A stretch of DNA of 42,476 nucleotides from sequence record MN850617.1; one strand, written 5' to 3'. The translations under genes were made by a program, and so were the position numbers. The notes below the pieces were generated by a model that saw only the letters and a list, made by a program, of their open reading frames with translations, made no database searches and was not told where the DNA came from. How positions within the stretch are numbered: the first letter of the stretch is position 1; each line of letters starts with the position of its first letter. The stretch is from Escherichia phage forsur. Below are positions 1,891 to 35,823 of the stretch, piece by piece.

Positions 1891-2124
1891 ATGAGCAGAT
1901 ACCAACGAGCCATTGAGGATACCGTGGTCGAGAAAGGTGTGTGCGGGGAGTGCCACGGCTGTGGCACATTCACCAGCATGACCATTCGACACGAGCTTGT
2001 CCAAACTGAATGTGAAGCCTGTGGTGGCACAGGCGTGACTGACCCGGCACTGCAACGTTCAGTGCTGCGGGAACAAGGTATGCGCTGCCAAGTGCAGCCG
2101 GGCTATGACCAACCAACGGAGTAA
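1891..2124 (+). CDS. small zinc-finger protein (CxxC...CxxC)
   Basis: ATG 1891 preceded by AGGAG; product contains CGECHGCG and CEACGG Cys pairs. Confidence 0.6.
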   Translation: MSRYQRAIEDTVVEKGVCGECHGCGTFTSMTIRHELVQTECEACGGTGVTDPALQRSVLREQGMRCQVQPGYDQPTE

Positions 2125-4559
2125 TGATGGACTTACTTGCTGAGCAGATTCGACTGGAAGAAGAAGCGCGAGCCAGACACCGCGAGGGCTGGCTGGATAA
2201 TATCAGAGAGGCGTTGGCCGCTGGCCGGGCTGGTTCAGTACCATTGCTCCAGCGTATGATGGTTGAGGCGTATCCTCAAGTTGAAGCTGCGATGCAAGAA
2301 CTCCTGAATGAAACTGCCCGTGGCTATGGTGCGCAGTACCGGACATACATGCGGGAGCTGGGGCCGCGAGCTTGTGCCTCACTCGCGTTGAGCATGGCTG
2401 TGTCCGGTGCCGCTGCTGAGCAAGCAGTGCTTAACTTGCTCAAGGACATGGGCAAGGCTCTCATGGCTGAGGTGGTGTACCTTCGGGCCAAGGCTGCCGG
2501 GCCTGTGCAGGCTGCGTACATGGCCAAGGTTAAGACTGACGTTAAGCGCTCTCGTTCCAAGTCAGCTAACCATGTGTATAACAAGGCGAAAGCGTCGGCG
2601 TCTAACGTTGGCGTTGAGCTGGATATCCTGCCACAGCGTGCGCTCATCACCATTGGTAAGATGATGATGAAGTGCATCGAGCCTACTGGTCTGCTGGTCA
2701 CTATGCGTGTCGGCGGCAACCACCGTCAGCGCGGCACCGCGCACTTCGCACTGCATGAAGATGTGCTGGCAACGATGAAAGATTGGATGGACTTGCCACG
2801 GGCAGACGGCCTGTGCTGTCCTCCAATGATTATCCCGCCAGCGCAGATTGCACGCGATGGTCGTAGTGGTATGTGGCACTCGCCGGGGCAGGCTGCCATG
2901 TACCGGGCAATCAGCCGCATGAACCACCGTGGCTACCGTGCGCTGGGTGTTGACCCACTGCCCATCATAGAGCCGTGTATGATGCTCAGCAGCGTTCCGT
3001 ACCGAGTTAACCCAATGGTATTGGAGTTCCTGAGAACGAACCGTACAGGCGTTATGGGGCTGCCTGTGCCGCCTCGTGAGCCTAAGCTCCCGTTCACCAT
3101 CCCGGCTGGTGTCAGCTTCGCTCAGTACATTAGCAAGTTCCCACCAGAAATGCAGCAGCAGATGGAGTCGGAAGCCCACGAGTACAAGGTGAAGACCCGT
3201 CTGTATTACAACGAGCTGCGCAAGTTCACGTCACAAATGCTGGCGCTGAACGGTGCAGTCAAAGAGGCCGAGCGCTATGCGCCATACGATAGGGTATATC
3301 TCCCGACTTACGCCGATACGCGGGGCCGAATTTATTATTCTTCGACCCTTAACCCTCAGTCCATCGACGCGGTGCGAGCGCTGCTCGAACTTGCTGAACC
3401 AGTGGCTCTCGGAGACGAGGGGCTGTTCTGGCTCAAGGTACATGTTGCGAATTGTTTTGGATACGACGCCACCGACTTCGACGACCGGGCGGCGTGGACG
3501 GACAAAACACTCCCCCGACTACGTGAGGCGTGCCGTCTTCCAGAGGCATTTGATTCGTTCTGGTCAGAAGCCGATAGCCCTATCTCAGCGTGGGCTGCTG
3601 CTGTTGAACTCATTCGAGCTATCGACTCAGGAAGTCCTGAGACTTATCCCTGCCGAGTGGTTACGCAGTGGGACGCTACATGTTCAGGACTCCAGCACCT
3701 CAGTGCGATGCTACGCGATGAGGTTGGAGGTGCTGCTGTCAATCTTGTCGATAGCGTGGGAAGAAAAGCAGACATATATCTTAAGACGGCAGCAGCGGCG
3801 ATGCAGGCTCTTGAAGAAAGTGAAGCGGCTGCGCCGACGACAATGGGTTCGTGGCTTGTTTCCATCGGCATTGTTCGGGCTATGGCCAAGAAGCCAGTGA
3901 TGACCTACGTGTACGGGGCAACCCGGCACGGCATGGTTGACTACTACTGCCTGTATCTGCGTGAGAACCGGGTCAAGCTGCCGGAGGGTAAGAGCCTGCT
4001 GGAGTGTGCTCAGTTCATTGCTGAGTTTATGTGGGCTGCTATCCCCCGCGTCGTGCCGAAAGCTGCCGAGCTGATGGCATGGTTGCAGGCTATCGCAGTA
4101 GAGGCTGCGAGCATGGGTGAGTACGTGGAGTTCACTGCGCCGTCCGGTCTTCGTGTGGTCAATCTGTATCAGGCCAGCAAAGAGATTGCGCTGAACAACA
4201 TCAACCTCATGGGTATCCACGGCATCAAGCTGCGCGAGTATCTGGATAAGCCAGATGGTCGCAAGTGTGCCGCTGCGATTGCTCCGAATTTTGTACACGC
4301 CATGGATGCCAGTCACATGATGAAGGTTCTGTGGGAGATGTGGAATAACGGGGTATACATGGTATCCATCCACGACTCGTTCGGTGTAGCGGCAGCCCAT
4401 GCTGGGTTACTGCACAAGGTCATCCGTGAAAAGTTTGTGCAGATGTATGAGGAATGTGACCCTATTCAGCAACTTGCGTCAGCATATAACCGTGAAGCTC
4501 CAGCTCGCGGTAATCTGGACATCCAGCTTGTGAAGAAATCAAGCAAGTTCTTCTGCTGA
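2124..4559 (+). CDS. single-subunit DNA-dependent RNA polymerase (T7-like)
   Basis: 811-aa ORF; contains QWDATCSGLQHLSAM (cf. T7 RNAP motif A DGSCSGIQHF) and VSIHDSFGV (cf. T7 motif C IHDSFG). Position immediately upstream of the structural module. Confidence 0.95.
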   Translation: MMDLLAEQIRLEEEARARHREGWLDNIREALAAGRAGSVPLLQRMMVEAYPQVEAAMQELLNETARGYGAQYRTYMRELGPRACASLALSMAVSGAAAEQAVLNLLKDMGKALMAEVVYLRAKAAGPVQAAYMAKVKTDVKRSRSKSANHVYNKAKASASNVGVELDILPQRALITIGKMMMKCIEPTGLLVTMRVGGNHRQRGTAHFALHEDVLATMKDWMDLPRADGLCCPPMIIPPAQIARDGRSGMWHSPGQAAMYRAISRMNHRGYRALGVDPLPIIEPCMMLSSVPYRVNPMVLEFLRTNRTGVMGLPVPPREPKLPFTIPAGVSFAQYISKFPPEMQQQMESEAHEYKVKTRLYYNELRKFTSQMLALNGAVKEAERYAPYDRVYLPTYADTRGRIYYSSTLNPQSIDAVRALLELAEPVALGDEGLFWLKVHVANCFGYDATDFDDRAAWTDKTLPRLREACRLPEAFDSFWSEADSPISAWAAAVELIRAIDSGSPETYPCRVVTQWDATCSGLQHLSAMLRDEVGGAAVNLVDSVGRKADIYLKTAAAAMQALEESEAAAPTTMGSWLVSIGIVRAMAKKPVMTYVYGATRHGMVDYYCLYLRENRVKLPEGKSLLECAQFIAEFMWAAIPRVVPKAAELMAWLQAIAVEAASMGEYVEFTAPSGLRVVNLYQASKEIALNNINLMGIHGIKLREYLDKPDGRKCAAAIAPNFVHAMDASHMMKVLWEMWNNGVYMVSIHDSFGVAAAHAGLLHKVIREKFVQMYEECDPIQQLASAYNREAPARGNLDIQLVKKSSKFFC

Positions 4560-4586
4560 ATAAAGCATTGTATTCCTTGCTTATTT

Positions 4587-4609
4587 ATGAAAGTGACTAT
4601 AGTGATAGA
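4587..4609 (+). promoter_or_regulatory. candidate phage RNAP promoter (T7/SP6-class core ACTATAG), putative +1 G at 4602
   Basis: ATGAAAGTGACTATAGTGATAG; the ACTATAG heptamer matches the -6..+1 core shared by T7 and SP6 promoters. Lies in the intergenic gap just after the RNAP gene. Exact inverted copy at 26463..26485; 14-mer direct copy at 4854..4867. Confidence 0.5.
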
Positions 4610-4666
4610 ATCACGCTACCGGTAGCCCCGTCAGTGGCGGGGGTGCTGCCACTCAGAGAGGATTGT

Positions 4667-4852
4667 ATGGGTAAAGAATCTCCATTAGATAGAGTAACAT
4701 TCACTAAAGCTCAGATAGCTCTACTGGAAAAGCACTTCGGTACATGGGTACAGGTAGGCAGAACAGTAACACCTGACACTAACCTACCACTGATTAACAG
4801 AGAAGCTGGTAAGCAGGATGTACTGGACTTCATCCGTGAAAGAGTGATTTGA
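4667..4852 (+). CDS. hypothetical protein (61 aa)
   Basis: ATG 4667 preceded by GAGAGG; the ORF track starts it earlier at 4568 but that start lacks an RBS and covers the promoter-like element. Confidence 0.5.
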   Translation: MGKESPLDRVTFTKAQIALLEKHFGTWVQVGRTVTPDTNLPLINREAGKQDVLDFIRERVI

Positions 4853-4853
4853 A

Positions 4854-5273
4854 ATGAAAGTGACTATTATGGGAAATACAACGCACACGACTATGCCTCT
4901 TGACATTCGGCGTGCGGTGGCCGAGGGCATACAAGCCGAGCGGCCATGGTCAGACCTATCTCCCGATGTGATAGTCGAACGCATGTACGAGGCCACTGCC
5001 GCTGGTTGCGTTGACGTTTACATTACTGCCGACGACGATGGCCTCATGGCTGTTGCTCACATCGGCAGGTTATTCGATATTCATGTGGGCGAGATGGTGG
5101 TCATTATGGCCTCATACGTCTGGCCCCAGTACAGAAACCGTGGAGTGATGCGTGCCATCCTCCGTGTACTCAAAGACGTGGCCCGTTCCGAGGGTGTACG
5201 TTGGTGCGGTTACTCCCACATGGTGCGGCCTTACGTTCAGGAGTACCGCTTCATAGATTTGGAGAAACCGTAA
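4854..5273 (+). CDS. hypothetical protein (139 aa; alternative start 4869)
   Basis: ORF in track; first 14 nt are a copy of the promoter-like 14-mer ATGAAAGTGACTAT, so the true start may be the in-frame ATG at 4869. Confidence 0.6.
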   Translation: MKVTIMGNTTHTTMPLDIRRAVAEGIQAERPWSDLSPDVIVERMYEATAAGCVDVYITADDDGLMAVAHIGRLFDIHVGEMVVIMASYVWPQYRNRGVMRAILRVLKDVARSEGVRWCGYSHMVRPYVQEYRFIDLEKP

Positions 5274-5533
5274 TGGGTAGCGTAGGTAAAGTTTTCAAGG
5301 GGATTGGCTCGGTCTTTGGACTAGGTAGCCAGAAACCCCAGTACACGATTAAGACTGACCCGAATCAGGTCAAGGCTGAAACCTTGAATGCAAACTTGCA
5401 GGCTGATTTGGCGAACGATAACACCCCGACGATTCAGGCAGGTGGTCAGGTTACTTCGGCCTCCGACACTTTATCGAGCCGACGCCGCCGCACCGGAACG
5501 GGTGTAGCAAGCAACCTCGGCATCGGGAGTTAA
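5273..5533 (+). CDS. hypothetical small protein upstream of portal gene
   Basis: ATG 5273 overlaps upstream stop (TAATG) and follows GGAGAAACC; 86 aa, Gly/Ser-rich. Confidence 0.55.
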   Translation: MGSVGKVFKGIGSVFGLGSQKPQYTIKTDPNQVKAETLNANLQADLANDNTPTIQAGGQVTSASDTLSSRRRRTGTGVASNLGIGS

Positions 5534-5536
5534 CGA

Positions 5537-7102
5537 ATGGCATACGACGCGCAGAACGTCAGCTATGAATCGCTCTGGCAAAAGTACCGGGACAGTAACG
5601 TAGTCACCAAGGCTCGTGAGTACAGTCGTTACACGTTGGCCAAGCTGGTCAGTGAATACGACCGCGCCGAGGTAGACGACATGAACCGCCAGCAGATTAC
5701 TCGTGACTACCAATCTGTCGGCGCTCTGCTCGTTAACAACCTCGTCGCTCGACTGGGTGAGTTCCTGTTCCCGGCATCAGCCCGGTTCGTAAAGCTGAAA
5801 CTCGATAAGGTGTCTGACCAACAGCGGCAGCAAATGTCCAAGGTCAATCAGGCACTCATCACTATTGAAAAGGGCATCGTAGACAAAGCCAAAGAGAACG
5901 GCGGCTACGCTGACCTGTTAATGACCATTGCCCAACAAGCAGTCACTGGTAACGCCGCGCTGTACCGCGATATGGAAACTGGAACGTACCGAGTGTACGG
6001 GCTGGAATCCTTCGTGGTGCAGCGCGACGGTCGTGGCGTTGTTACGGACGCCGTGGTCAAAGAACGCATCCAGTGGGATTCCCTCGACAAAGCGTTTCAG
6101 GACATGCTGAACGCCAAGGGCTTCCGCTGTGGTGGTAACAAACGTGTGTGGCTGTACACTCGCGTCCTCCGGGTTAGGAAGGACAGTGGGCTGTATGGCT
6201 ATGAAGTAACGCAGCAGGTGGGCAACTACCAAGGCTGTGTCTACACCCCCGGTAAAGATTACTACCCTGAAAAAGTCTGCCCTTGGATTTTCCCAGTGTG
6301 GTCTTTGAAGTCTGGCGAGCATTATGGTCGCGGGATTGTCGAAGACCACGCTGGGGATTTCGCACGTCTGTCGATGCTGTCTGAGCACTCTGCTCTGTAC
6401 ATGCAAGAGGCGCTGCGTGTCCTGTGGATGCTGACTGGTTCTGGCGGCAACGTCGATGACATTGAATCCGCGCAGACTGGGCAGGTCGTACCTCTCCAGA
6501 ATGGCACCACGCTGTCTGGTCTTGAGGTCGGGGATTACCAGAAAGTTCAACAGGCCCGTGACGAAATTAACCAGATTGTGCAGCGACTCGCGCAGGCGTT
6601 CATGTACACTGGTGAGTTCCGTGACTCGGAGCGTACCACCGCAACCGAAGTGCAGCAGGTAGCAACCAGCGCCGAACGTGGGCTGGGTGGCCCGTACTCA
6701 ATGCAGGCAAAGACCCTCCAGATTCCTCTGGCATACGTCTTGCTCGCAGAGATTGACGAGTCCTCCGTACCTGACATTGTGGGCGATATCCTGACGCTTC
6801 AAGTTGAAGCTGGTCTGGATGCCCTCGGTCGCAGCATCGAAGCTGAGACGCTGATTCGTGCGCTCTCTGATTCGCAGGCAGCAATGGTTGCTGTCCAAAA
6901 CATTAACGGCGTTGCCAACGTCATTGACCCTCAGAAGGTCATTGAGGTTATCTTCGCTTCCAACGGCGTCGCGCTTGATGACTATCGTAAGTCAGCGCAA
7001 GACCTCGCAAATGAAGGTCAGCAAATCGACAGAGCAGCAGCCGCTGCCGCAGGCGTACAGCCGGGCGCAGTCGATGTAGCGCCGAACGTCGCTCAGATTT
7101 AA
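5537..7102 (+). CDS. portal (head-tail connector) protein
   Basis: 521 aa; segments FVVQRDGRGVV, KVCPWIFPV...GEHYGRGIVED and LGGPYSMQAKTLQIPLAYVLL parallel recalled T7 gp8 segments (YVVQRDAFGNVL, EACPYIPIR...GESYGRSYIEE, LGGVYSILSQELQLPLVRVLL). Confidence 0.9.
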   Translation: MAYDAQNVSYESLWQKYRDSNVVTKAREYSRYTLAKLVSEYDRAEVDDMNRQQITRDYQSVGALLVNNLVARLGEFLFPASARFVKLKLDKVSDQQRQQMSKVNQALITIEKGIVDKAKENGGYADLLMTIAQQAVTGNAALYRDMETGTYRVYGLESFVVQRDGRGVVTDAVVKERIQWDSLDKAFQDMLNAKGFRCGGNKRVWLYTRVLRVRKDSGLYGYEVTQQVGNYQGCVYTPGKDYYPEKVCPWIFPVWSLKSGEHYGRGIVEDHAGDFARLSMLSEHSALYMQEALRVLWMLTGSGGNVDDIESAQTGQVVPLQNGTTLSGLEVGDYQKVQQARDEINQIVQRLAQAFMYTGEFRDSERTTATEVQQVATSAERGLGGPYSMQAKTLQIPLAYVLLAEIDESSVPDIVGDILTLQVEAGLDALGRSIEAETLIRALSDSQAAMVAVQNINGVANVIDPQKVIEVIFASNGVALDDYRKSAQDLANEGQQIDRAAAAAAGVQPGAVDVAPNVAQI

Positions 7103-7114
7103 TTTGGAGATTAC

Positions 7115-8347
7115 ATGTCTGGTGAATACCAACCTACTGCCGCACCCGCTCCCCAAAACGTACCCGCTGGCCCGACCTATTCTCCCTCTGGTCACGGCGG
7201 TAATGATTATGGTGGAAGCCCACAGGTGGTACAGAACCCAGCGCTCGGACGCTTAGGCACGCCGATTGAACTGCCGCGAGGTGGTGCAACTCCGCAGCCG
7301 CAACAGCCGTTCGGTCAACAGCCGGGCCTGATTCCAAATCAGGAGTACAACCCGTATGCCCAACCGCAGCAGGGAAACCCAAGCCCTTACGCACCCGTAC
7401 CTCAGCAGAACCCGTATGGTGCTCCGCAACCGCAAAGCCCGTTTGCGGCACCACCTATTCCGATTAATGGGTATCCGCAACAGGGCTACACGCCTCCGGG
7501 CCAAGCGGCTCCGGCACAGCAGCCGGGCTTAGCACCGAACAACCCTGCGTATGGCTTCAACCCGTATGGGCAGCAGCCTCAGCAGCAGCAGCCGCAACAG
7601 CAGGCACCTCAGCAGCCGCAGCAGCCTTTCCAGCAGTTGCAGCCGCAGCCGGGCCAGCCGCCTCAGCAGTTCCAGAATCCGAACCTAACGGCAGAGAATC
7701 TGGCAAAGCAGGAAGGTGGACTGACCGCTGACCAAGTGGCTCAGATTTTCCCGGATGAAACCAGTCGTGCTGTGTTCCAAGGTATGGACACCATCGCCCG
7801 TGGCCAGAACATCGACCTGCTTGCAGCGTTCGGTTCTGCATACGAGCGTCGTGACCCTACTCTGGTGAATGAGCGCTATCTGGCGCAGTTCGACCCACAG
7901 ACTGTATCCATCCTCAAAGGTCAATTCGGCGCACTGGTTGCCGCTGGTCAGCAGCGCGATGCTGCAATCGAACAGCAGGTTTACCAGATGGCTGGTGGCC
8001 AAGAGCGTTGGGGTCTGGCAGTGCAGGCATTCAATACCGCTGCCGACAAAGGCACGATTGATGCTGTAGTAGCGGCTGTGAACTCCGGCGACCCTAATCA
8101 GGTACGTCTGGCAGTGAACACCATTCTCCAGTTTGCTGGTTCCCAAGGGAATATGATTCAGCGTTCTGGACAAAGTTTGACGCCTAATGGTGGCGGTCAA
8201 GCACCTCGTGACGTTATGACTAACGAGGCATTCCGTCAGCATCTTGGCTGGCTTGAGCAGGCGCATCCTGTTGGTTCCCCGGAATACAACAAGCATTACG
8301 CCGTACTGGTAGAGCAGCGCCGTCAGGCCAAAGCTCAAGGTTACTAA
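7115..8347 (+). CDS. scaffolding protein with long N-terminal Pro/Gln-rich low-complexity region
   Basis: Sits between portal and capsid genes; C-terminal part (AGGQERWGLAVQAF...) resembles recalled T7 gp9 (AGGRERFDALYNHL). The N-terminal ~180 aa are P/Q/N/Y-rich repeats. Confidence 0.8.
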   Translation: MSGEYQPTAAPAPQNVPAGPTYSPSGHGGNDYGGSPQVVQNPALGRLGTPIELPRGGATPQPQQPFGQQPGLIPNQEYNPYAQPQQGNPSPYAPVPQQNPYGAPQPQSPFAAPPIPINGYPQQGYTPPGQAAPAQQPGLAPNNPAYGFNPYGQQPQQQQPQQQAPQQPQQPFQQLQPQPGQPPQQFQNPNLTAENLAKQEGGLTADQVAQIFPDETSRAVFQGMDTIARGQNIDLLAAFGSAYERRDPTLVNERYLAQFDPQTVSILKGQFGALVAAGQQRDAAIEQQVYQMAGGQERWGLAVQAFNTAADKGTIDAVVAAVNSGDPNQVRLAVNTILQFAGSQGNMIQRSGQSLTPNGGGQAPRDVMTNEAFRQHLGWLEQAHPVGSPEYNKHYAVLVEQRRQAKAQGY

Positions 8348-16057: not shown

Positions 16058-19000
16058 TTACACAAGAATCGCTCGACAAGTTCATGGCTCCCAAGCAGGG
16101 GGCCAACGCCCCTACGCTGGTGATTCCAGCTCCCGTAAAAGCTGAGACGCTCAGCACTCCACTGCAAGACGCCACTCGTCAGGGTGCCGTTGAGCAGTTT
16201 GATAAGATGCAGGAACTGGAAGCGACACCAATCGCCACGGCTTTGAGCGCTTCTGTGAAGAACTGGGATACCACTCAGCTCTTTGATGCGGCACTCAACA
16301 AGCCTGTGTTTCAGGCTGACCCGAACTTCCACCCGAACGAGGCATTGCAGAATGTCCAGTTCCCGGTGACTGAGGATGACCGCACATTCCTGTTCAAGTC
16401 CAAATCAATGGACGAGTTCAACTGGCGTACACAGCAGCTCCAAGAGATGCGCGAACGTACCCAGTTGGCTCACACTGCGCCAGTGATGAACGCAGTGCTG
16501 CAATTCGCTGACCCGCTGTACCTCGCCACTGACCTGCTCTCGATGGGAGCAGGCACTGCCCTGAAACTTGGTCGCCTCGGAACCGCCGCTGTCGGTGCAG
16601 CTTCAACTGCTGCCACTATGACAGCGGTGGGTAACGAAGCACGCCCAGTGTCTCAGAACGAGATTATCTTTGCGGCTGCCCTGCACGGGGCGGCCACCAC
16701 TGCATTCTATCGCCCCGCCGCTGCGCCAGCCCGTCGCCTTGATGAGCTGTCGCCGGAGGAATTTGCGGCAGAGATGCAGCGCCGTAACGGTATTGACCCG
16801 AACAACCCTCCGCAGTTCGACCCGAACAATGCCATGTCTCCGCTGGCAATGTCACTGGGCTTCGGGCGTCGCGGTGCCATGGAGACTGACGAGGTTCCTG
16901 AATCCATCCGGGCTGCGGCTCAGCGTGGACTCGACCTCGCTCGCCGTGGTGAGCAGACCAACCCTAAGCGTCCATTCCTTGAGTGGTCACTGTTCAAGTC
17001 GTTCAGTCAGCATTCTGACGAAGCCAGTGCTCTGGCCGGGCGTCTGCTGGATGACCCGCTGAATCCGAACATGACCTCTGCTGCTGCAATCCAGCGCGAG
17101 ACTCAGGCTCGCTTCGGTGTGCTGCTGAACCAGTATGAAGACACCCTGCGTAACGCCCTGACCACTGATGGCTGGAGTAACCTCCGGCGCTTCCGTGACC
17201 CGGTAGGCTATCGCCGGGCGCAGCAGGAGTTCGAGGCTGCTGTTCGTCTTGAGCTGGACAAGCGCATGATTGACAACAACTTCCGTGGCGCTAACCCGAA
17301 TGTGGCCGCTGCCGCCGACCGACTGGGCGAATACTCTCGCGCCGTGGGCCGGGAGCTGGAACGCAAGGGGATGGTTGAGCCGGGCTTCGTGGAGAAGAAC
17401 CCGTACTACTACCCTCGCCGGATGAACGTGACCAAGATTGAGCAGGCTGAGCAGTTGCTCGGTAAGAAGCCATTCATGAAGCAGATGACGACTGCTGTGC
17501 AGCGCGGCATCGGTACTGACCGACCGACTGCCAACGTCATTGCCCATGCCATGGTAGAGCGTGCTCGCCGTAAGGGTTACGGTATTGACAACTCCGGTAT
17601 GATTATCAACAAGGAGGGCCGCGATGAGCTGCTCGAAATCATTGAGAACTCGAAAGGACTCGACGAGGCTGCCAAGGCCCGTGCTTCCGCACTCCTTCGT
17701 GAATCTGGCTCGGACGCTGGCCGACCGTCGATGCTCAAGAGTCGTATCAACATCGACATGATGCACCAGCTCGGCCCTAACTTGCAGGTGCGTGACCTAT
17801 TCGACGACAGCATCACCAGCATGATGGATGCGTACAACCGCCGCATTACCGGGCGACTGGCTCTGCATGAAGCTGGACTGGGTACTGACGCCGAACGCGC
17901 TGCTGCTCGTGAGGCTCTGGCCAAATCCATCAAGGATGGTACGGCTCGTCGTCAGGCGCTGGAGCAGTATGACAACATCATGGCTTATTATCAGGGTGCT
18001 CCGGTCGGTGAGGAAATGCCGCAGTTCATGCGCCAGCTCTCAGCACTGACTCAGGCTACTGGTCTGGCTGCATCCGGTCTGTGGCAGTTGGTGGAATACG
18101 GCACGATGATGCAACGTTTTGGGGCGGTCAATACATTTCGCGCCATGATGCGCACAATCCCGGAAGCACGCGCATTATTTAAGCAGATGAGAGTGACTAC
18201 TAAGGAAGGTCGTCAGTTGGCCTTGGATGCTGAGGAAGCTCTGACTGCTGCGGTGGCGAGCGATATTCGTATGCGTCCAATCATGCAGCACTATGACGAC
18301 ATGTTCTCTGCTGACAAGTCACCGTGGGTTATGCGTCTTGAGCACGCCCGTGACGCCACGATGTTCATCAACATGCAGAAATACATCCACTTCCACCAGA
18401 CTCGAACCAACGCAGCTCTCGTGATGCAGACGCTGCGCAAGGCAGCAGAAGGTGATGCCAAGGCTATTGCCGCGATGAAAACCTATGGTGCCAATGATGC
18501 GCTGCTGGCTGATATCCGTAAGCAGGTTGCCAAGTCCGGCACCAAGCCGGATGCGTGGGATGAGGGTGTGTTCAACCGTACCCGCATCGTCATGATTAAC
18601 GCCATGGATGACGCTATTGTTCGCGCCCGTGTGGGCGAGCTGCCTGCATTCGCAGAGTTCAGTACCCTCGGTAAGTTCCTGTTTACGTTCCGTCGATTCG
18701 TCGCGGCTACGCACAACAAGACTCTGGTTGGTACTTGGAATCGTGAGGGTGCCCGTGGCATGGCTACGCTCATGGCGTACCAGTATCCGCTGGCGATGAT
18801 GGCCACCGCTGCCAACAACGTGATTTCCGGTAAAGCATTCTCTGACCCGGAAACCATGGCACCTAACAAGCTGGCTAGTCAAGCGCTGAATTACCTTGGT
18901 GCTATCGGCTTTGCCTCTGAGTTCACTGGTGTCCTGACTGGTCAGCAGCGTAGCTTCGGTGCGCCGGGGCTGCTGTTCCTTGACCGCGCTTATGGTGTGG

Positions 19001-19161: not shown

Positions 19162-21533
19162 TGGCGAACAGCTATAACACTTACGTGGCGAACGGTTCGC
19201 AGACCGCGTTCCTCGTTACGTTTGAGCAGCGCGTGTTCACACAGATTCAGGTGTACCTCAACTCCGAACTCCAAACGAGCGGGTACACCTACAACTCTGT
19301 GACCAAACAGATTGTCTTTGACACCGCCCCGCTCGCCGGGGTGATTGTCCGTTTGCAACGCTACACCTCTGAGACTCTGCTGAACAAGTTCGGACAGGAC
19401 GCTGCCTTTACGGGCAGCAACCTCGACGAGAACTTCGAGCAGATTCTGTTCAAGGCTGAGGAAACTCAGGAAGCATGGCTCGCGCCGCTTGACCGCGCCG
19501 TCCGTGTCCCGAACTCCGAAGTCTCCATCAACGCATTACCGAACGTCGCTGGCCGCCGCAACAAGGCACTGGGCTTTGACAGCAATGGCCAGCCGTTCAT
19601 GATTCCTCTGGTTGATATCCCTGACTCCGCGCTGGCGATTGCTCTGGCAATGGCTGACGGCGGTAAGTGGATTGGTACACTGGGCGGCGGTACGTTCCTC
19701 GACCGTCAGGATACCGTGTGCCTGTCAGAGTTCACCAACAACACCGGGTATGCCTCTGTCGCCGCTGCGGTACAAGCGTGCTTCGATTATGCCAAGGCTA
19801 ACCACAAGACTGTGGATGCCCGTGGTTGGGTCGGTACTGTCAACTCTACTGTCCTGATGGACGGTATTGAGGTTGTCGGCGGCACTTGGAACGGTACGGC
19901 TGATATCCGGCTGCTGGATTCCACATTCCGCGACTTCAAAGCCTCCACTGTCCGTGTCTGTTACTGGGGTGGTAAGGTTCGCATCTCTGATTATGAGTTC
20001 ACTGGTGCGCCGTCGAACTCCAAAGTAGCGAGCATCCTGTTCCAAGGTAACATCGCCGGGGGCAGCTACGTTATTGAGAACGGTATCCACCGCAATGGCA
20101 AGTTCGGTATTCTCCAGCAGGGTACTGGTGAGGCTATCGACAACGGCGTTATCCGCAACATCGCTATGATGAATATGCTGGGTGACGGCATCGAGATGAA
20201 CGTAATCAACAAGCACTATGATGGTGGCCTGCTGATTGAGAACATCTACCTCGAAGACCTCGACGGTACGACCGCTCCTATCCCTCTGTCCAACTGGGGC
20301 ATCGGTATCGGTATCGCTGGTCAAGGCCCGTTCGGTTGGGATGCTGCTGAAACGCAGTACGCCAAGAACGTGGTTGTCCGTAACGTCCATGCTCCGCGTG
20401 GTGTGCGTCAGGTTGTCCACTTCGAAGTTACCCGCGACAGCGTGTGCGAGAACGTGTTCTGTAACCCTGACCTCGCTGTGTCAACTGGTACTGGCCTGAC
20501 GGCGGCAGGTGTAATCACCTACGGCTGCAAGCGAATGACCATTGACGGCGTGGCTGGTGAGCCAATCAACACTGGCGCAACCTCTCCTAACGCGATTCGT
20601 CTCGTTATGTTGGAGTGGGGTGCGAACCAAGCAGGTGCAGGCGGTACGCCGGGCGCGGCATGTCCTTCGTTTGACATGACTGTGCGCAACGTGCAGACCC
20701 GTACCGGACGCTTCTATGCTGGCGTTGGCTCTGATGACGTGAACAACAACACGTACCATCTGGAAAACATCCACTGCCATACGATGAGTCTGTTCGGCGT
20801 GGCAACGCTGCTGAATATGACCAACGTGACCGGGGTAGTGTTCGATGCTGTAGGCGATGACTCCAGCGGCGGTACTTCATCCAACGGCCTATACCCGCGT
20901 AAGAAGACTGTTCTCAACATGGTGAACGTGAACTTCTACGGCGATGGCATGACTGAGGGTGCGCTGTACAGTAAGGCTCGCTATTCGGATATCAGTACGC
21001 TGAACTCCAACGTGCGTGCTATCCCGTACACCAACATCCAAGGTAACGTAGGCGTCATCCTGTCTCCGGTCAACCGCATGTACACGCTGCCGAATAACCT
21101 TGCAACCCTGACTGGTGGGGAGTTCCCGACTGGTAAAGAGTTCTGTGAGGGGACGGTGCTGTTTAAGACTGACGGCTCTGGTGGCAACTTCATCGTGACT
21201 GGCTTCGGCGCGTACATCCCGGATGACGGGAACAACTTCAAGGTGCGTGCTGCTGCCGCTGGCCAGACGTATCTTGAGCAGAACCTGACTCCGGCTGGTA
21301 CTCAGGCTTCCACCTCGTGGCTGTACCATAAGCCTATCTCGGCTGGTACTCGTCTACAGGTGCCGGGCGCTGGCGCTGGTGGTGCGCCCTTGACGGTTAC
21401 GGTGGTTCGTGCGCCTTATCAGGTGGACAATAACATCGGGAACCCGGTACGCATCGACATTACCCCGGCGCTCGTGACGGCTATCCCTGCTGGGACTCAG
21501 CTCGCCGCGACGTACCCGGTCACTTATATCTAA
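19161..21533 (+). CDS. tail fiber / tailspike with T7 gp17-like N-terminal anchor and probable right-handed beta-helix (depolymerase-like) body
   Basis: 790 aa; N-terminal ~110 aa (MANSYNTYVANGS...VRLQRYTSETLLNKFGQDAAF) parallel recalled T7 gp17 N-domain; middle region has repetitive (I/V)xNG(I/V) beta-helix-like rungs (IENGIHRNGKFGI, IDNGVIRNIAMMN). Confidence 0.85.
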   Translation: MANSYNTYVANGSQTAFLVTFEQRVFTQIQVYLNSELQTSGYTYNSVTKQIVFDTAPLAGVIVRLQRYTSETLLNKFGQDAAFTGSNLDENFEQILFKAEETQEAWLAPLDRAVRVPNSEVSINALPNVAGRRNKALGFDSNGQPFMIPLVDIPDSALAIALAMADGGKWIGTLGGGTFLDRQDTVCLSEFTNNTGYASVAAAVQACFDYAKANHKTVDARGWVGTVNSTVLMDGIEVVGGTWNGTADIRLLDSTFRDFKASTVRVCYWGGKVRISDYEFTGAPSNSKVASILFQGNIAGGSYVIENGIHRNGKFGILQQGTGEAIDNGVIRNIAMMNMLGDGIEMNVINKHYDGGLLIENIYLEDLDGTTAPIPLSNWGIGIGIAGQGPFGWDAAETQYAKNVVVRNVHAPRGVRQVVHFEVTRDSVCENVFCNPDLAVSTGTGLTAAGVITYGCKRMTIDGVAGEPINTGATSPNAIRLVMLEWGANQAGAGGTPGAACPSFDMTVRNVQTRTGRFYAGVGSDDVNNNTYHLENIHCHTMSLFGVATLLNMTNVTGVVFDAVGDDSSGGTSSNGLYPRKKTVLNMVNVNFYGDGMTEGALYSKARYSDISTLNSNVRAIPYTNIQGNVGVILSPVNRMYTLPNNLATLTGGEFPTGKEFCEGTVLFKTDGSGGNFIVTGFGAYIPDDGNNFKVRAAAAGQTYLEQNLTPAGTQASTSWLYHKPISAGTRLQVPGAGAGGAPLTVTVVRAPYQVDNNIGNPVRIDITPALVTAIPAGTQLAATYPVTYI

Positions 21534-25871: not shown

Positions 25872-26039
25872 GGGCATCTGAAAGCTGACACATTGAACAG
25901 GCCGTGGGTGCAATACCCCGGCTTGAAAATTGAACGTTTATGCGTGGGCCTCCCTCGACCCGAATGACCGCGCGTACCCCCATGACGTGTGCGCGGATTA
26001 GCCTCGCGACGTGCGCGATATTGCTCGCGTGCGCTGCGC

Positions 26040-26450
26040 GGCGCGTCAAGAGGATTGCCTGCGTGCGGTATAGCTCGTGCGTGTCGCGTTTCATCGTCTG
26101 CCGTGTGGCGTGCTGTGCGCTGTCCTGCTGGCTGTGCTGTGCGGTGCTGTCCTATGGGGACGCTCTGCGCTGGCTGTGCTGTGCTGCGTGCTGCGCTCGG
26201 TCGGGCGGGTATCTGTCTCTTTTGCCGTGGTACGCTCTGCGCCGTGGTGGTGCTGTGTGGTGGTGGTGCTGCCGTGGTGCTGTCCTGTCTGCTGGTCTAC
26301 TGTCTGCGCCGCCAGCTCTGCGCGTCATGCTCTGCTACCTGCTGCTACTGTCCTACTGCGTTCACTGGCTGCCGCCTGTCATCCTGTCGGATTCCATCCG
26401 TTGCCGTTCCGCGCTCGCTTGTTTCGGCTGCGCCGCGCTCGCTCTGCGTA
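26040..26450. repeat. A-depleted (C/G/T only on + strand) low-complexity block with degenerate GCTG/CTGTG/GGTG repeats; candidate terminal-repeat region
   Basis: Adenine is nearly absent on the + strand over ~400 bp, so no + frame contains a stop; non-coding position between the last late gene and the early promoters. Confidence 0.6.
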
Positions 26451-26462
26451 TCTAGCGATACA

Positions 26463-26485
26463 TATCACTATAGTCACTTTCATAA
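26463..26485 (-). promoter_or_regulatory. inverted exact copy of the T7-class promoter-like element at 4585..4607 (would fire leftward into the A-depleted block)
   Basis: + strand TATCACTATAGTCACTTTCATAA is the reverse complement of 4585..4607 (23/23). Confidence 0.4.
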
Positions 26486-26499
26486 TTATCTATTGATAT

Positions 26500-26590
26500 C
26501 AGTAACTTATAACCTATCTGATAACGGTATCTATCCTATGCAATAACCTATTCAATCAAATATTTATTCCTAATGATTACAGTAACTTAT
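26500..26590. repeat. AT-rich segment with 11-bp direct repeat CAGTAACTTAT (26500..26510 and 26580..26590)
   Basis: Read directly; copies are 80 bp apart, each preceded by TGAT; candidate origin or packaging iterons. Confidence 0.4.
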
Positions 26591-26622
26591 CCACTATTTG
26601 AGCTATTCAGTGAAAATAAATC

Positions 26623-26651
26623 TTGCAATGCTGTTTGTGATTTGCTGTAAT
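26623..26651 (+). promoter_or_regulatory. host sigma70-type early promoter P1
   Basis: -35 TTGCAA (26623..26628), 17-bp spacer, extended -10 TGcTGTAAT (hexamer 26646..26651); A-rich UP-like tract upstream. Confidence 0.6.
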
Positions 26652-26726
26652 TCTCATCGCCGGGTAGCAGAACATCGCTACACGGTGGCAAGACGGTAAC
26701 ACTGCTCTTTAACAATCTGGAGTGTA

Positions 26727-26755
26727 TTGACAAGGCAAGCTCACTATGCTGTAAT
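26727..26755 (+). promoter_or_regulatory. host sigma70-type early promoter P2
   Basis: -35 TTGACA (26727..26732), 17-bp spacer, extended -10 TGcTGTAAT (hexamer 26750..26755). Confidence 0.65.
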
Positions 26756-26863
26756 GCTTCCAGTCAGCCAGACAAGCCAAACAGTCATGGATAAAGACGT
26801 TAAAACCCGCGCAGGCTAACTGGTACGGATTATTCATCTCAGAATGGGCGCTGAATAAAACGG

Positions 26864-26892
26864 TTGACAGGATGAAACGAGTATGCTGTAAT
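26864..26892 (+). promoter_or_regulatory. host sigma70-type early promoter P3
   Basis: -35 TTGACA (26864..26869), 17-bp spacer, extended -10 TGcTGTAAT (hexamer 26887..26892); AATAAAA upstream. Confidence 0.65.
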
Positions 26893-26944
26893 ACGCTCCA
26901 GATTGACAGGGCAAGCAAGCCTGACAGTCAGTAGTAAAAAGTAG

Positions 26945-26973
26945 TTGACAAGCTGAATACACTGTGTTGTAAT
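26945..26973 (+). promoter_or_regulatory. host sigma70-type early promoter P4
   Basis: -35 TTGACA (26945..26950), 17-bp spacer, extended -10 TGtTGTAAT (hexamer 26968..26973); GTAAAAAG upstream. Confidence 0.65.
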
Positions 26974-27451
26974 CAGCACCGAGTTGGAAGGATGCAAAAC
27001 ATCCTGCTCTGAGTGAACGCAAACTGGCCGCGTAGTGTCACGGCTCACTGGGTATCCGCCGCAGGTTGGAACTGGGTGAGGCATCGCCGAAAGGCAACGG
27101 TATCGCAACAATGCTAACGCCGTAGGGGTAGCGCCTGATGCAAGGTAACGGAGAAGCGCGATAGACGCAGCGCAGTATCAGTACAATACCAAACGTCTTA
27201 TAAGGCGCGGAGTATAGCGGGTAGGTAGTCAAACGGCTTGTTAGCTGGCAACGGTGAGCAAGATACGCGACGGACTGCTGGAAGACTCCTGAGAGTGGAT
27301 GCAGACAATATCCACAGCGCGAAATGGGCGGGGCGATTTTTCAGGGTAGTGAATCCGACAAGCCAATCAATGCCACTGAGTGCAGACTGTACGGCGCGTC
27401 ACAATGGGTTCACTATCCACCTGAAAATAGCCAACAACTGGAGAAATAACT

Positions 27452-27844
27452 ATGTACCGTATCTATGCAAGCGCATATCGTCAGAACAACGCTGAGTGTG
27501 TTAATCTGGCGCTTCATTGCAAGGCACTGCGAACGGTGCAGGATATGTTCGGAGTGATTCCGGTCACACTGACAGGCAAGTTCGACAATGCGTATGAGTT
27601 AAGCATGGTCTTTCCTGTCGATGGAATCTACGAAATCAGACAGGCTGTTAAGCTGTTCTGTAAAGCCTTTGAACAGGACTGCATCATGGTAGTGACCGAT
27701 GACAATGATGCAATCTTCATGGATTCACCATATCCGGGCAAGCCTGCTGGCAAGTTTGTCAGCAAGACAGAAGCGGAGATGGAAGCCGGGCAGTTCACTG
27801 CTTGGACTTACGATGGTGAGCAATTTTGGGTAGTGGAGGCGTAA
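27452..27844 (+). CDS. hypothetical early protein (130 aa), first gene after the leader
   Basis: ATG 27452 with GGAG 8 nt upstream; ORF in track. Confidence 0.7.
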   Translation: MYRIYASAYRQNNAECVNLALHCKALRTVQDMFGVIPVTLTGKFDNAYELSMVFPVDGIYEIRQAVKLFCKAFEQDCIMVVTDDNDAIFMDSPYPGKPAGKFVSKTEAEMEAGQFTAWTYDGEQFWVVEA

Positions 27845-32472: not shown

Positions 32473-32988
32473 ATGGCTATTGACTTTAAATTATTCAACG
32501 CCGAGCAACTTGAAACTGTCAAGTCTCTGGCTGAGTTCATCGACAACCACCCGGAGCTGAGCGAACTGGTTGAGTTCAAGGGTGGCTACCTGCCGAAGCA
32601 AAGTTACATCGGCGCGGTGCGTAAAGGTCGTGAAGGTATGCTGGATATTATTCCGCAGACCAGAACCGGGGCGCTGCTGGCACGCAACGTCAGCGTGCTG
32701 ATTGGCATGAACGTGAAGCGTGCCAGTGAGCAGGGCAATGCGGCTGAGGTTGAGACGCTGCGCCTGACAGGTACGCTCGCAGCTAAGGCCATGTCGGAAC
32801 CGGACATTGCCGAGCGCTATCATGACTGGTACATGGCGTGCGCTAATGTGCCAAGCGATATCAGTGAGACGACGCTGGGCCTGCTGTTCGTAGGTGAGTT
32901 CATCGACGCAACCATCCGTGCAGTCAGCGGTCAGGTGGGTGAATTAATTCAGGCAATGCAGCAGGCCAAGAATGCAACACGTCACTAA
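32473..32988 (+). CDS. hypothetical protein (171 aa)
   Basis: ORF in track; RBS GAAGGAAAG upstream. Confidence 0.7.
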   Translation: MAIDFKLFNAEQLETVKSLAEFIDNHPELSELVEFKGGYLPKQSYIGAVRKGREGMLDIIPQTRTGALLARNVSVLIGMNVKRASEQGNAAEVETLRLTGTLAAKAMSEPDIAERYHDWYMACANVPSDISETTLGLLFVGEFIDATIRAVSGQVGELIQAMQQAKNATRH

Positions 32989-33213
32989 GCTCACCGTAAC
33001 CAAATCACCCACCGGATTATTCTGGTGGGTAGTTGATAAGCTGCAACCAAATAAACCTTTGGCTGTGCGTGATACAAAGTGGGAAGCCGAGAGTAAACTC
33101 GAAGACCTTCAACGTATTATGCGGAATGTTATTCCAGCTTAGCCATCTACTCATGCCAGTTATTATTTAGCTGGCATTATGAAGGTGACTATATTGGACA
33201 ACCCGGAGGAAAT

Positions 33214-34557: not shown

Positions 34558-35823
34558 GTGCTTGACAAGCTGTTGTTAACGGTGATGCGCGAGCGCGGGA
34601 AGTTCAACTCCCTGCGACACGCCATCCCGGAAGATACGATGAGCCAGACCACGAGCTATATGCTCAAGGCTTACGGCTCATACTTTGATGCGTTCCCGGA
34701 CAGTGACTACATTGACATTGACACGCTGGGTACGCACGTTCGTTTAAAGACAGGCAGCACGCCTGAACAGATGGCAGCCTTTGATTCGTTGTGCTCGCAG
34801 CTTCGAGAGTACAAGCCAACGAAGGAACAGAAGGAAGGTGTGCTTGACCAGCTCGTCGAGTTGGATACCGCTGGCCGTGCTAACCTGCTAATGCAGAGGT
34901 ACGACAATGGTGAGGAACTGGATATTATCTATGAGCTGGGCCGTCTTGCTGAGGGCGCACGTCGCAGCCGGGGGCAGTCATCTGTCACTGATTACGTGGA
35001 CGATGATGTGGTTGATATTCTCAACCGGACGGATGATAATCACGGCCTCAAGTTCGGTCTGCTCTGCTTGCAAGACAGCGTTCGCGTACTTCTACCCGGC
35101 GACTCCGTTGCCATCGGTGCTCGACCTGACAGCGGAAAGACTTCCTTCATCGCGTTTAACCTTACGCGAATGGCGGCGACAGCAGCGAAGCTCTATCCGG
35201 GCAGGCCAATCCTCTGGTTCAACAACGAGGGGCAGGGCATCAACATCATCCCGCGCATCTACCAAGCGGCGCTCAACTGCACGCTCCCAGAACTGAAAGA
35301 ACTGGGAGAGGACAGGGCTAAGCTGCACGCTGCGTATGCCAAAGCGCTGGGTGCGCCAGCCAACATCATTCGTGTGAAGGATATGCACGGCGCATCGCTG
35401 GCGAAAGCTGAGCAGGTTATCGAAGCGATGAACCCATGCGTTGTGGTGTGGGATATGCTGGCGAACTTCAAGCTGTCTGTCTCCGATGCCAACAGCAACA
35501 AGGCGTCGCAGGTTGAGCAGCTATGGCAGGAGGTACGTGAGCTGGCTGTGCGCCATGACTTCGTATCAATGGCCACGGTGCAGGTATCAGCCGATGGCAA
35601 GGATGATATGTTCCCTGCGCTGGATGCACTCAAGGATTCCAAGACTGGTATCCAAGGTGCGACTGATGTTATCGTCATGCTCGGCAGCGTGGATGACCCA
35701 TCGCTGGCAGCACGGCGCGGCGTCAGCACCCCAAAGAACAAACGCCAGATTGCTGGGCGTCCATCCAACGTGCGGTCACAGGTTCACTTCTTTGCTGACC
35801 GCTGCCAATTCGAGGATATGTAA
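34558..35823 (+). CDS. DnaB-like replicative DNA helicase
   Basis: 421 aa; Walker A GARPDSGKTSF resembles the DnaB/T7 gp4 family P-loop; GTG start after AGGAGAG. Confidence 0.8.
   Translation: MLDKLLLTVMRERGKFNSLRHAIPEDTMSQTTSYMLKAYGSYFDAFPDSDYIDIDTLGTHVRLKTGSTPEQMAAFDSLCSQLREYKPTKEQKEGVLDQLVELDTAGRANLLMQRYDNGEELDIIYELGRLAEGARRSRGQSSVTDYVDDDVVDILNRTDDNHGLKFGLLCLQDSVRVLLPGDSVAIGARPDSGKTSFIAFNLTRMAATAAKLYPGRPILWFNNEGQGINIIPRIYQAALNCTLPELKELGEDRAKLHAAYAKALGAPANIIRVKDMHGASLAKAEQVIEAMNPCVVVWDMLANFKLSVSDANSNKASQVEQLWQEVRELAVRHDFVSMATVQVSADGKDDMFPALDALKDSKTGIQGATDVIVMLGSVDDPSLAARRGVSTPKNKRQIAGRPSNVRSQVHFFADRCQFEDM

Follow-up and report, generated by a model that had tools for sequence, protein, structure and literature searches.

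In the Pseudomonas phage LUZ19, four phage-specific promoters that share the sequence GgtTATGTCACacACAnnGG have been mapped by ONT-cappable-seq (PMC10914365). Two of them lie just after the gene for the phage RNA polymerase (RNAP), and both of these were reported as transcript start sites; a third lies in the structural genes and the fourth is antisense, near the left end of the genome (PMC10914365). The authors suggested that the antisense promoter, P001, blocks read-through into the early genes, and they reported that KP34 and 15 further Phikmvvirus species share the promoter layout (PMC10914365). Here we describe a corresponding arrangement in Escherichia phage forsur (MN850617.1). Its sequence of 42,476 nucleotides (nt), hereafter called the window, amounts to an essentially complete Bonnellvirus genome, that of a phiKMV-type coliphage in the family Autographiviridae. 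The element in question is a 14-mer, ATGAAAGTGACTAT, which occurs twice behind the gene for a T7-type single-subunit RNAP and brackets a small gene. From its sequence and its relatives, we consider it very probable that each of the two 14-mers forms the recognition core of a promoter for the phage's own RNAP, the two promoters standing in tandem and belonging to a set of five in the genome. Elements of this kind are already known, as promoters of phage single-subunit RNAPs in the phiKMV-type layout.

A five-copy motif in the phiKMV-type layout

The 14-mer is present without mismatch at positions 4587-4600 and 4854-4867 of the plus strand, as the original prediction stated. The open reading frame (ORF) 4667..4852 is indeed situated between the two copies, and the second copy supplies the first codons of an ORF of 139 amino acids (aa) at 4854..5273 (MKVTIMGN...), in which ATG 4869 is in frame. 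The copies are spaced 267 nt apart and their similarity ends at 14 nt. Beyond the two first noted, a third exact copy was found on the minus strand at 26483..26470, together with two near-copies on the plus strand, at 33179 (one mismatch) and 18187 (two mismatches). When up to two mismatches were allowed, the window contained five matches, compared to a mean of 0.14 and a maximum of one in 100 dinucleotide-preserving shuffles, none of which reached five. Since five copies are far above the chance level, the repeat is a dispersed five-copy motif rather than a local two-copy duplication. A local duplication or recombination scar was also considered as a candidate origin of the pair, and is ruled out by the exact 14-nt extent of the similarity, the unlike flanks and the dispersed five-copy family.

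We refer to the five sites as P_A to P_E (Table 1); their consensus in the window is tATGAAAGTGACTATnnnGG. Four of the sites are on the coding strand, where one stands before the replication genes, two after the RNAP gene and one upstream of the tailspike, terminase and lysis genes, and the remaining site is antisense. A distance of 27 nt separates the last base of the RNAP stop codon (4559) from the first copy. The motif, which measures ~20 base pairs (bp), is repeated and mostly gene-oriented at the heads of gene blocks, as is expected of a promoter. A consensus scan of 4300..5600 called neither a sigma-70 promoter nor an intrinsic terminator.

Table 1. Coordinates of the candidate promoters and of the associated genes and features in the window
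Feature	Coordinates	Strand	Remarks
Candidate promoter P_A	33179..33201	+	Behind a conserved hairpin, ahead of the DNA-replication genes
Candidate promoter P_B (first copy)	4587..4609	+	Positions -17..+6; predicted +1 G4604 (alternative G4602); directly after the RNAP gene
Candidate promoter P_C (second copy)	4854..4876	+	Positions -17..+6; predicted +1 G4871 (alternative A4869); over the first GNAT codons
Candidate promoter P_D	18187..18209	+	In frame within the gene for a 1035-aa internal virion protein
Candidate promoter P_E	26461..26483	-	Flanked by the terminal-repeat region and the early genes; directed at the left genome end
T7-type single-subunit RNAP gene, 811 aa	2124..4559	+	phmmer match to T7 RNAP structures 1cez and 2pi4, E ~5e-57
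Codons for RNAP residues 686-700	4179..4223	+	Tip of the specificity-loop equivalent, from the T7 alignment
Predicted 5' leader of the P_B transcript	4604..4666	+	5'-terminal hairpin GUGAU/AUCAC; G+C-rich stem-loop
Conserved 61-aa gene	4667..4852	+	J8-65 gp29, LIMEzero ORF34, LUZ19 gp27 family; PHROG 6575, function unknown
GNAT acetyltransferase gene, 139 aa	4854..5273	+	Pfam PF00583, 24.1 bits against a cutoff of 20.7; homologue LUZ19 gp28
Small virion protein gene	5273..5533	+	
Portal gene	5537..7102	+	

To compare this arrangement with that of LUZ19, the LUZ19 motif sites were located by a genome scan and equated with the named promoters by position, which made the sites at 21115, 21312, 35590 and 751(-) P007, P008, P009 and P001, respectively. 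The site at 21115 lies 5 nt past the RNAP stop codon and the one at 21312 follows ~200 bp after it, like the 4587/4854 pair of the window. The site at 35590, in gp37, is the analogue of P_D, and the antisense site at 751- is the analogue of P_E; both antisense sites have the terminal repeat on one side and the host-type early promoters on the other. The window accordingly carries the elements of the phiKMV-type layout, with a post-RNAP pair, one structural site (18187, +) and one antisense site (26483, -), and both genomes hold a handful of ~20-bp promoters. The genes of the window are on the plus strand, and their local order (RNAP, 61-aa gene, GNAT, small virion protein, portal) is that of LUZ19, whose gp27 and gp28 are homologous to the 61-aa protein and to the GNAT protein. 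The two systems differ in consensus, GgtTATGTCACacACAnnGG in LUZ19 against tATGAAAGTGACTATnnnGG in the window, and in the fifth promoter, ahead of the replication genes (33179), which Bonnellviruses and Pantoea phage LIMEzero have in addition to the LUZ19 set. By analogy of position, we regard the pair 4587/4854 as the Bonnellvirus counterpart of LUZ19 P007/P008.

LIMEzero (NC_015585; genus Waewaevirus) has the same five syntenic sites, with a consensus of its own, ATGAAGGCAAGCACTAAGG. Its record annotates two of the five as 'putative phage specific promoter': the site at 20330-20349, directly after the RNAP gene, is syntenic with P_B, and the site at 7294-7313, before the primase gene and after an annotated terminator, is syntenic with P_A. 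Our scan adds the three other syntenic sites, including 20740 on the GNAT ATG and 656- near the left end. LIMEzero differs in having an extra ORF, ORF35, between its two post-RNAP promoters. The LUZ19 layout, antisense promoter included, thereby extends to enterobacterial phages of two further genera, which makes it a conserved design and not a peculiarity of Pseudomonas phages.

Directly 5' of P_A, a hairpin, TGCCAG-ttattattta-CTGGCA, occupies 33155..33178 of the plus strand. In the related phages LF82-23 and altidsur its stem shows a compensatory pair (TGCCTG...CAGGCA), and J8-65 and Lidtsur carry other stems in the same place. The LIMEzero record annotates a factor-independent terminator at the spot syntenic with this hairpin.

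Co-variation of the motif core with the polymerase specificity loop

Over the 2 kb around the repeat pair, identity is 98.6% to Escherichia phage glasur and 77-92% to 18 other records, and the matching records for which taxonomy was retrieved all belong to the genus Bonnellvirus of the Autographiviridae. We aligned the stretch between the RNAP stop and the GNAT start in 11 genomes and scanned nine whole Bonnellvirus genomes for the motif. Both copies of the pair are present in 11 of the 11 loci, with a core that is specific to the genome, and all five sites are syntenic across the nine whole genomes. This core, at motif positions 8-10, falls into four classes. The window shares TGA with glasur, ROV85 and RZ4; usur and Kc261 carry CTA, LF82-23 and altidsur TGT, and J8-65 and smaasur TAA. 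Across the six whole genomes that represent the first three of these, every site has the class core (30/30), and the antisense site P_E is conserved and co-varies in all nine Bonnellvirus genomes.

The residues encoded at the sites that overlap genes shift with the core. GNAT residues 1-5 read MKVTI, MKATT or MKVST, and the internal virion protein at P_D reads MRVTT, MRATT or MRVST. Because the encoded residues change along with the core, the constraint must act on the DNA and not on the protein, and because two of the promoters are embedded in coding sequence, a change of specificity forces amino-acid changes in two unrelated proteins. Changes that are mirrored at five sites over 40 kb can stem neither from the shared ancestry of each site nor from protein-level selection, and demand one trans-acting reader with a phage-specific specificity. 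A scan of IMG/VR with ATGAAAGNNNCTATAGTGATA returned 12 loci, among them one true relative, contig IMGVR_UViG_2751185941_000001, of the TGT class. The other loci were considered as further promoter classes and rejected, being single matches in contexts unlike those of the Bonnellvirus sites.

We propose that this reader is the RNAP encoded at 2124..4559, whose gene has counterparts annotated as RNA polymerase in glasur, J8-65, LIMEzero and other relatives. In T7 RNAP, the specificity loop reads promoter positions -10 to -8. In our alignment, T7 residues R746, N748, Q754, R756 and Q758 correspond to N692, N694, G700, K702 and R704 of the window RNAP. Between flanks that are almost invariant across the relatives, the loop segment differs by class, reading IALNNINLMGIHG with the TGA core, SPM-HLHLMGVHQ with CTA, TMLNNINLMGIHS with TGT and TTM-GIKLMGVHA with TAA. 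When six ~90%-identical polymerases were compared at their annotated coordinates, residues 686-700 formed the most variable 15-aa stretch, with 9 of 15 columns variable compared to 108 among the 796 remaining columns (Fisher p=4.8e-5). Seven columns tell all three promoter classes apart; three of them (688, 689 and 700) fall within this stretch (p=1.7e-4), and the difference between the TGA and TGT cores is paired with G700S plus I688T/A689M. Taken together, these results show that the promoter core co-varies with the RNAP specificity loop among related phages, in four core classes. The premise of the original prediction, that the repeat is promoter sequence, is borne out by these five syntenic sites and their co-variation with the loop. 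Such co-variation of promoter cores and specificity loops is established for phage single-subunit polymerases (PMC11880802); Bonnellvirus, J8-65 and LIMEzero are not mentioned in the main text of that paper.

The system resembles the class II/III promoters of T7, T3 and SP6 and their polymerases in its plan, having a single-subunit RNAP homologous to that of T7 and a ~17-bp conserved element upstream of a G start. It also resembles T7 in that changes in the core, at what would be positions -10 to -8, are paired with substitutions at the residues aligned to R746, N748 and Q754. It differs from T7 in its five promoter copies per genome, one of them antisense, against 17-18 copies in T7, and in its residues at the contact positions, which are N, N, G, K and R against R, N, Q, R and Q. 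The promoter sequence of the window differs from that of every characterised promoter; its core, GTGAC-TATAG, resembles the SP6 promoter, GGTGACACTATAG.

The Bonnellviruses would on this evidence comprise four natural polymerase/promoter specificities on a ~90%-identical polymerase background, a view that is better supported than the idea of a replication origin considered below. Between these closely related polymerases the promoters differ at one to three core bases and the loops at few residues, and minimal natural switches of this sort are what engineers of orthogonal T7-type expression systems seek (PMC11880802). The syntenic sites also provide a complete candidate promoter map for the genus Bonnellvirus, obtained from sequence alone. 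The records of the genus contain no such map, and promoters are not mentioned in the Bonnellvirus literature that we searched.

Predicted initiation at the tandem sites and its alternatives

What is observed directly is a motif in five copies that is syntenic and co-varies both from site to site and with the polymerase loop, together with a conserved gene between two of the copies. As to mechanism, we propose that the polymerase would bind ATGAAAGTGACTATnnn, an element of ~17 bp, and initiate at the conserved G behind it, at or near G4604 in the first copy and G4871 in the second. A G is found at motif position 18 in five of the five window sites, followed by a purine, and is kept at almost all sites in the relatives and in LIMEzero. 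With +1 at motif position 18, the motif starts at -17 and the variable core comes to lie at -10 to -8. The alternative, T7/SP6-like register (G4602, A4869) would place T or A at +1 in three of the five sites. In LUZ19, where the motif was built on the sequences at -50..+1 of the mapped starts, it ends in GG (PMC10914365). Transcripts from P_B would cover the 61-aa gene, the GNAT gene and the structural genes. Those from P_C would begin inside the GNAT gene and so could not encode the full-length enzyme; they would provide extra transcription of the downstream virion genes.

Several points weigh against this account. Initiation at the two copies and the exact +1 positions are what we infer only by analogy with the mapped LUZ19 starts and from the conserved position-18 G, and the division of labour between the two promoters is a proposal. 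The place of the second promoter is not the same in the two phages, being the annotated 5' end of gp27 in LUZ19 and the GNAT start codon in the window. The promoter classes follow phylogenetic clades, so that the association of polymerase and promoter comes down to ~3-4 independent switches. Moreover, the cores of the TAA clade are uneven, as P_C of J8-65 has TAT and Lidtsur mixes TAA, TAT and TGA, which reflects either looser recognition in that clade or the decay of some sites. Finally, P_D has clearly decayed in the J8-65 clade (ATGCGAGCATCTAC), at ~32965..32994 in J8-65 and at the syntenic smaasur site; some copies can thus be lost, and this one is dispensable in that clade, unlike the two post-RNAP copies.

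The predicted P_B leader contains a ribosome-binding site, GAGAGGA, ahead of ATG 4667. The leader RNA folds at -27.4 kcal/mol, weakly better than shuffled sequences (z = -2.03), and its sequence is nearly identical in eight relatives and different in the J8-65 clade and Lidtsur. Rfam gave no match at gathering thresholds in the leader or anywhere in the window. Because the fold is marginal and Rfam has no match, we make no claim for a riboregulator.

For the GNAT gene, the start codon ATG 4854 coincides with motif bases 1-3 and is invariant, and PHROG 3986 matches the protein over its full length from residue 1. GNAT codons 8-13 show synonymous changes between clades, which indicates that translation starts upstream of them and, by parsimony, that ATG 4854 is the start. 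This ATG sits 1 nt past the stop codon of the small gene, and in J8-65 and Lidtsur the two genes, as annotated, overlap by one base (TAATG). Since the GNAT start adjoins the small gene's stop, GNAT is probably translated by coupling on the transcripts from the first promoter.

An additional role for the pair, compatible with that of promoters, would be a transcription-primed replication origin, formed by the tandem sites and the AT-richer small gene in the manner of T7 phi1.1A/phi1.1B. In T7, these promoters come immediately downstream of gene 1, with an AT-rich stretch behind them. They constitute the primary replication origin of T7 (PMC8373140). The tandem pair of the window directly follows the polymerase gene too, and the interval between the copies is persistently GC-poor in three genera. 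This interval is, however, only moderately AT-rich (37-48% GC in 60-nt windows) and is a conserved protein-coding gene, and a priming role would suit the minus-strand promoter near the genome end no less well. We regard an origin at this locus as unlikely. If it were one, the association of polymerase gene, tandem promoters and origin would be an ancestral linkage across the Autographiviridae, despite the differing position of the polymerase gene.

The original prediction had offered, as an alternative to gene insertion, that the second copy is a weaker promoter making a near-leaderless transcript for ATG 4869. That the second copy is a promoter agrees with our data, but the two details do not. 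Its 14-nt recognition part is identical to that of the first copy and its start region, GGGAAA, resembles the T7 optimum GGGAGA, so there is no support for its being weaker. As to the leaderless transcript, an mRNA that starts at A4869 and is translated from AUG 4869 would yield a GNAT isoform five residues shorter. In the T7/SP6-type register, in which CTATA is followed by +1, the equivalent of G4602 is indeed A4869, the A of an in-frame ATG, and this codon is ATG in eight of the 11 relatives. It is, however, not conserved, as J8-65 and smaasur have GTG in its place and Lidtsur and LIMEzero have AAG, and the same register gives T, A and A at +1 of the other copies. The register two bases downstream gives G at +1 in 5/5 sites with a purine at +2, and its best-fit +1, G4871, would remove the AUG in question. 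T7-type polymerases strongly prefer G at +1, and the LUZ19 motif derived from mapped starts likewise ends in GG. We therefore give little credence to a leaderless isoform.

Co-variation proves recognition and not initiation, and one may suppose that the second copy binds the polymerase without productive initiation, acting as a pause, roadblock or occlusion that modulates read-through or GNAT translation. The site does overlap a start codon, and a polymerase bound there would clash with those elongating from the promoter 267 nt upstream. Nevertheless, its recognition core is the same as that of the intergenic copies and its G-rich start region suits initiation, and both post-RNAP promoters of LUZ19 are among the reported transcript starts (PMC10914365). 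A non-initiating site is thus very unlikely, and two tandem promoters remain the preferred reading of the pair.

The bracketed gene and the genome ends

The original prediction took the gene between the copies for a moron, inserted by recombination between promoter copies, and proposed to compare its presence or absence in related genomes. In this comparison the gene was always present: it lies between the copies in 19 of 19 Bonnellvirus records, it corresponds to ORF34 of LIMEzero, and both repeat copies accompany it in 11/11 loci. Its product is homologous and syntenic to gp27 of LUZ19, which represents a third genus. Among 5.8 billion proteins, the homologues form five clusters, of which the named one is from J8-65 and the longest contigs are genome-sized, and no homologue was found outside this phage clade. 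The protein has no Pfam match and no relative among solved structures (best E 0.55). The GC content of the gene is 42.5%, in the 1st percentile of 186-nt windows, compared to 55.4% for the genome and ~55% in the neighbouring genes, and GC at third codon positions (GC3) is 34%, compared to ~61% in the neighbouring genes. The homologues are low in GC as well (36-45% in Bonnellvirus and LIMEzero), and LUZ19 gp27 is below its genome average, more weakly. That the homologues share it argues for low GC as a long-maintained property rather than a sign of recent import. Collectively, these sequence comparisons strongly suggest that the 61-aa gene has long belonged to the core genes and was not inserted recently.

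The gene resembles Hendrix-type morons of lambdoid phages in being small, in having a promoter immediately upstream and in having a GC content below that of its neighbours. It differs from them in that its presence does not vary, it lacks a terminator of its own and it holds the same locus in three genera, and in that its promoter belongs to the core late-transcription programme of the phage. Although identical 14-mers flank the gene, its GC and GC3 are low, and the extra ORF35 of LIMEzero indicates that the bracketed interval can accept genes, its insertion, or its maintenance as a mobile cassette, through recombination between duplicated promoter copies is scarcely tenable, given its presence in every relative, its clade-limited homologues with their shared low GC, the lack of a terminator-like site between the copies in the scan of 4300..5600, and flanking repeats that are two of five dispersed sites co-varying with the polymerase. 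A conspicuous repeat is in this way explained as ordinary phage biology and the moron is removed as a false lead.

ORF35 of LIMEzero (20583..20744) encodes 53 aa, lies between the small gene and GNAT, and has a normal GC content (51%); it looks like the most inserted-gene-like item at the locus. In the LUZ19 segment 21283..21331, the second motif site (21312-21331) falls inside the annotated 5' end of gp27, and homology with the small protein of the window starts only at gp27 residue 29; the annotated gp27 start may be too far upstream. A 12-nt exact direct repeat, TCATCCGTGAAA, links the RNAP gene (4420..4431, encoding VIREK) with the small gene of the window (4830..4841, encoding FIRER), both on the plus strand, and is probably due to chance.

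The left end of J8-65 (TCGACCCGAAGG...) aligns to position ~25955 of the window, which places the physical genome end and the terminal repeat at ~25955..~26200. This segment is a single collapsed copy of a direct terminal repeat of ~240-260 bp, and the window is probably a circularly permuted assembly. P_E (ATGAAAGTGACTATAGTGATATG...) runs opposite to all genes, between the end of the late genes and the early region, with the physical left end ~510 nt away. From 25975 to 26460 the plus strand is nearly free of A, with 4.8% in the lowest 400-nt window compared to a genome mean of 22.9% (sd 2.9), and RNA from the antisense promoter would consequently be poor in U (7.2% over 500 nt). The corresponding values are 7-9% in eight other Bonnellviruses, 10.8% in LIMEzero and 6.4% in LUZ19. 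The same segment holds short degenerate TGCTG/GTG repeats.

Within it, ATCTGTCTCTTTT at 26211..26223 (+) occurs once in the window, counting both strands. It is conserved in 9/9 Bonnellviruses, the J8-65 clade and Lidtsur having the form ATCTATCT(C/T)TTTT, and in J8-65 its counterpart is found 13 nt beyond the right-hand side of the annotated 259-bp terminal repeat. The sequence resembles ATCTGTT, the class II pause signal of the concatemer junction in T7. At the start of the early region, TTGACA-N17-TGTAAT is repeated three times on the plus strand (26727..26755, 26864..26892 and 26945..26973). A sigma-70 consensus scan of 26400..27500 called none of these, as the scan demands A at position 2 of the -10 element, where the repeats have G. 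The LIMEzero record annotates three host-type promoters at the corresponding place in its early region.

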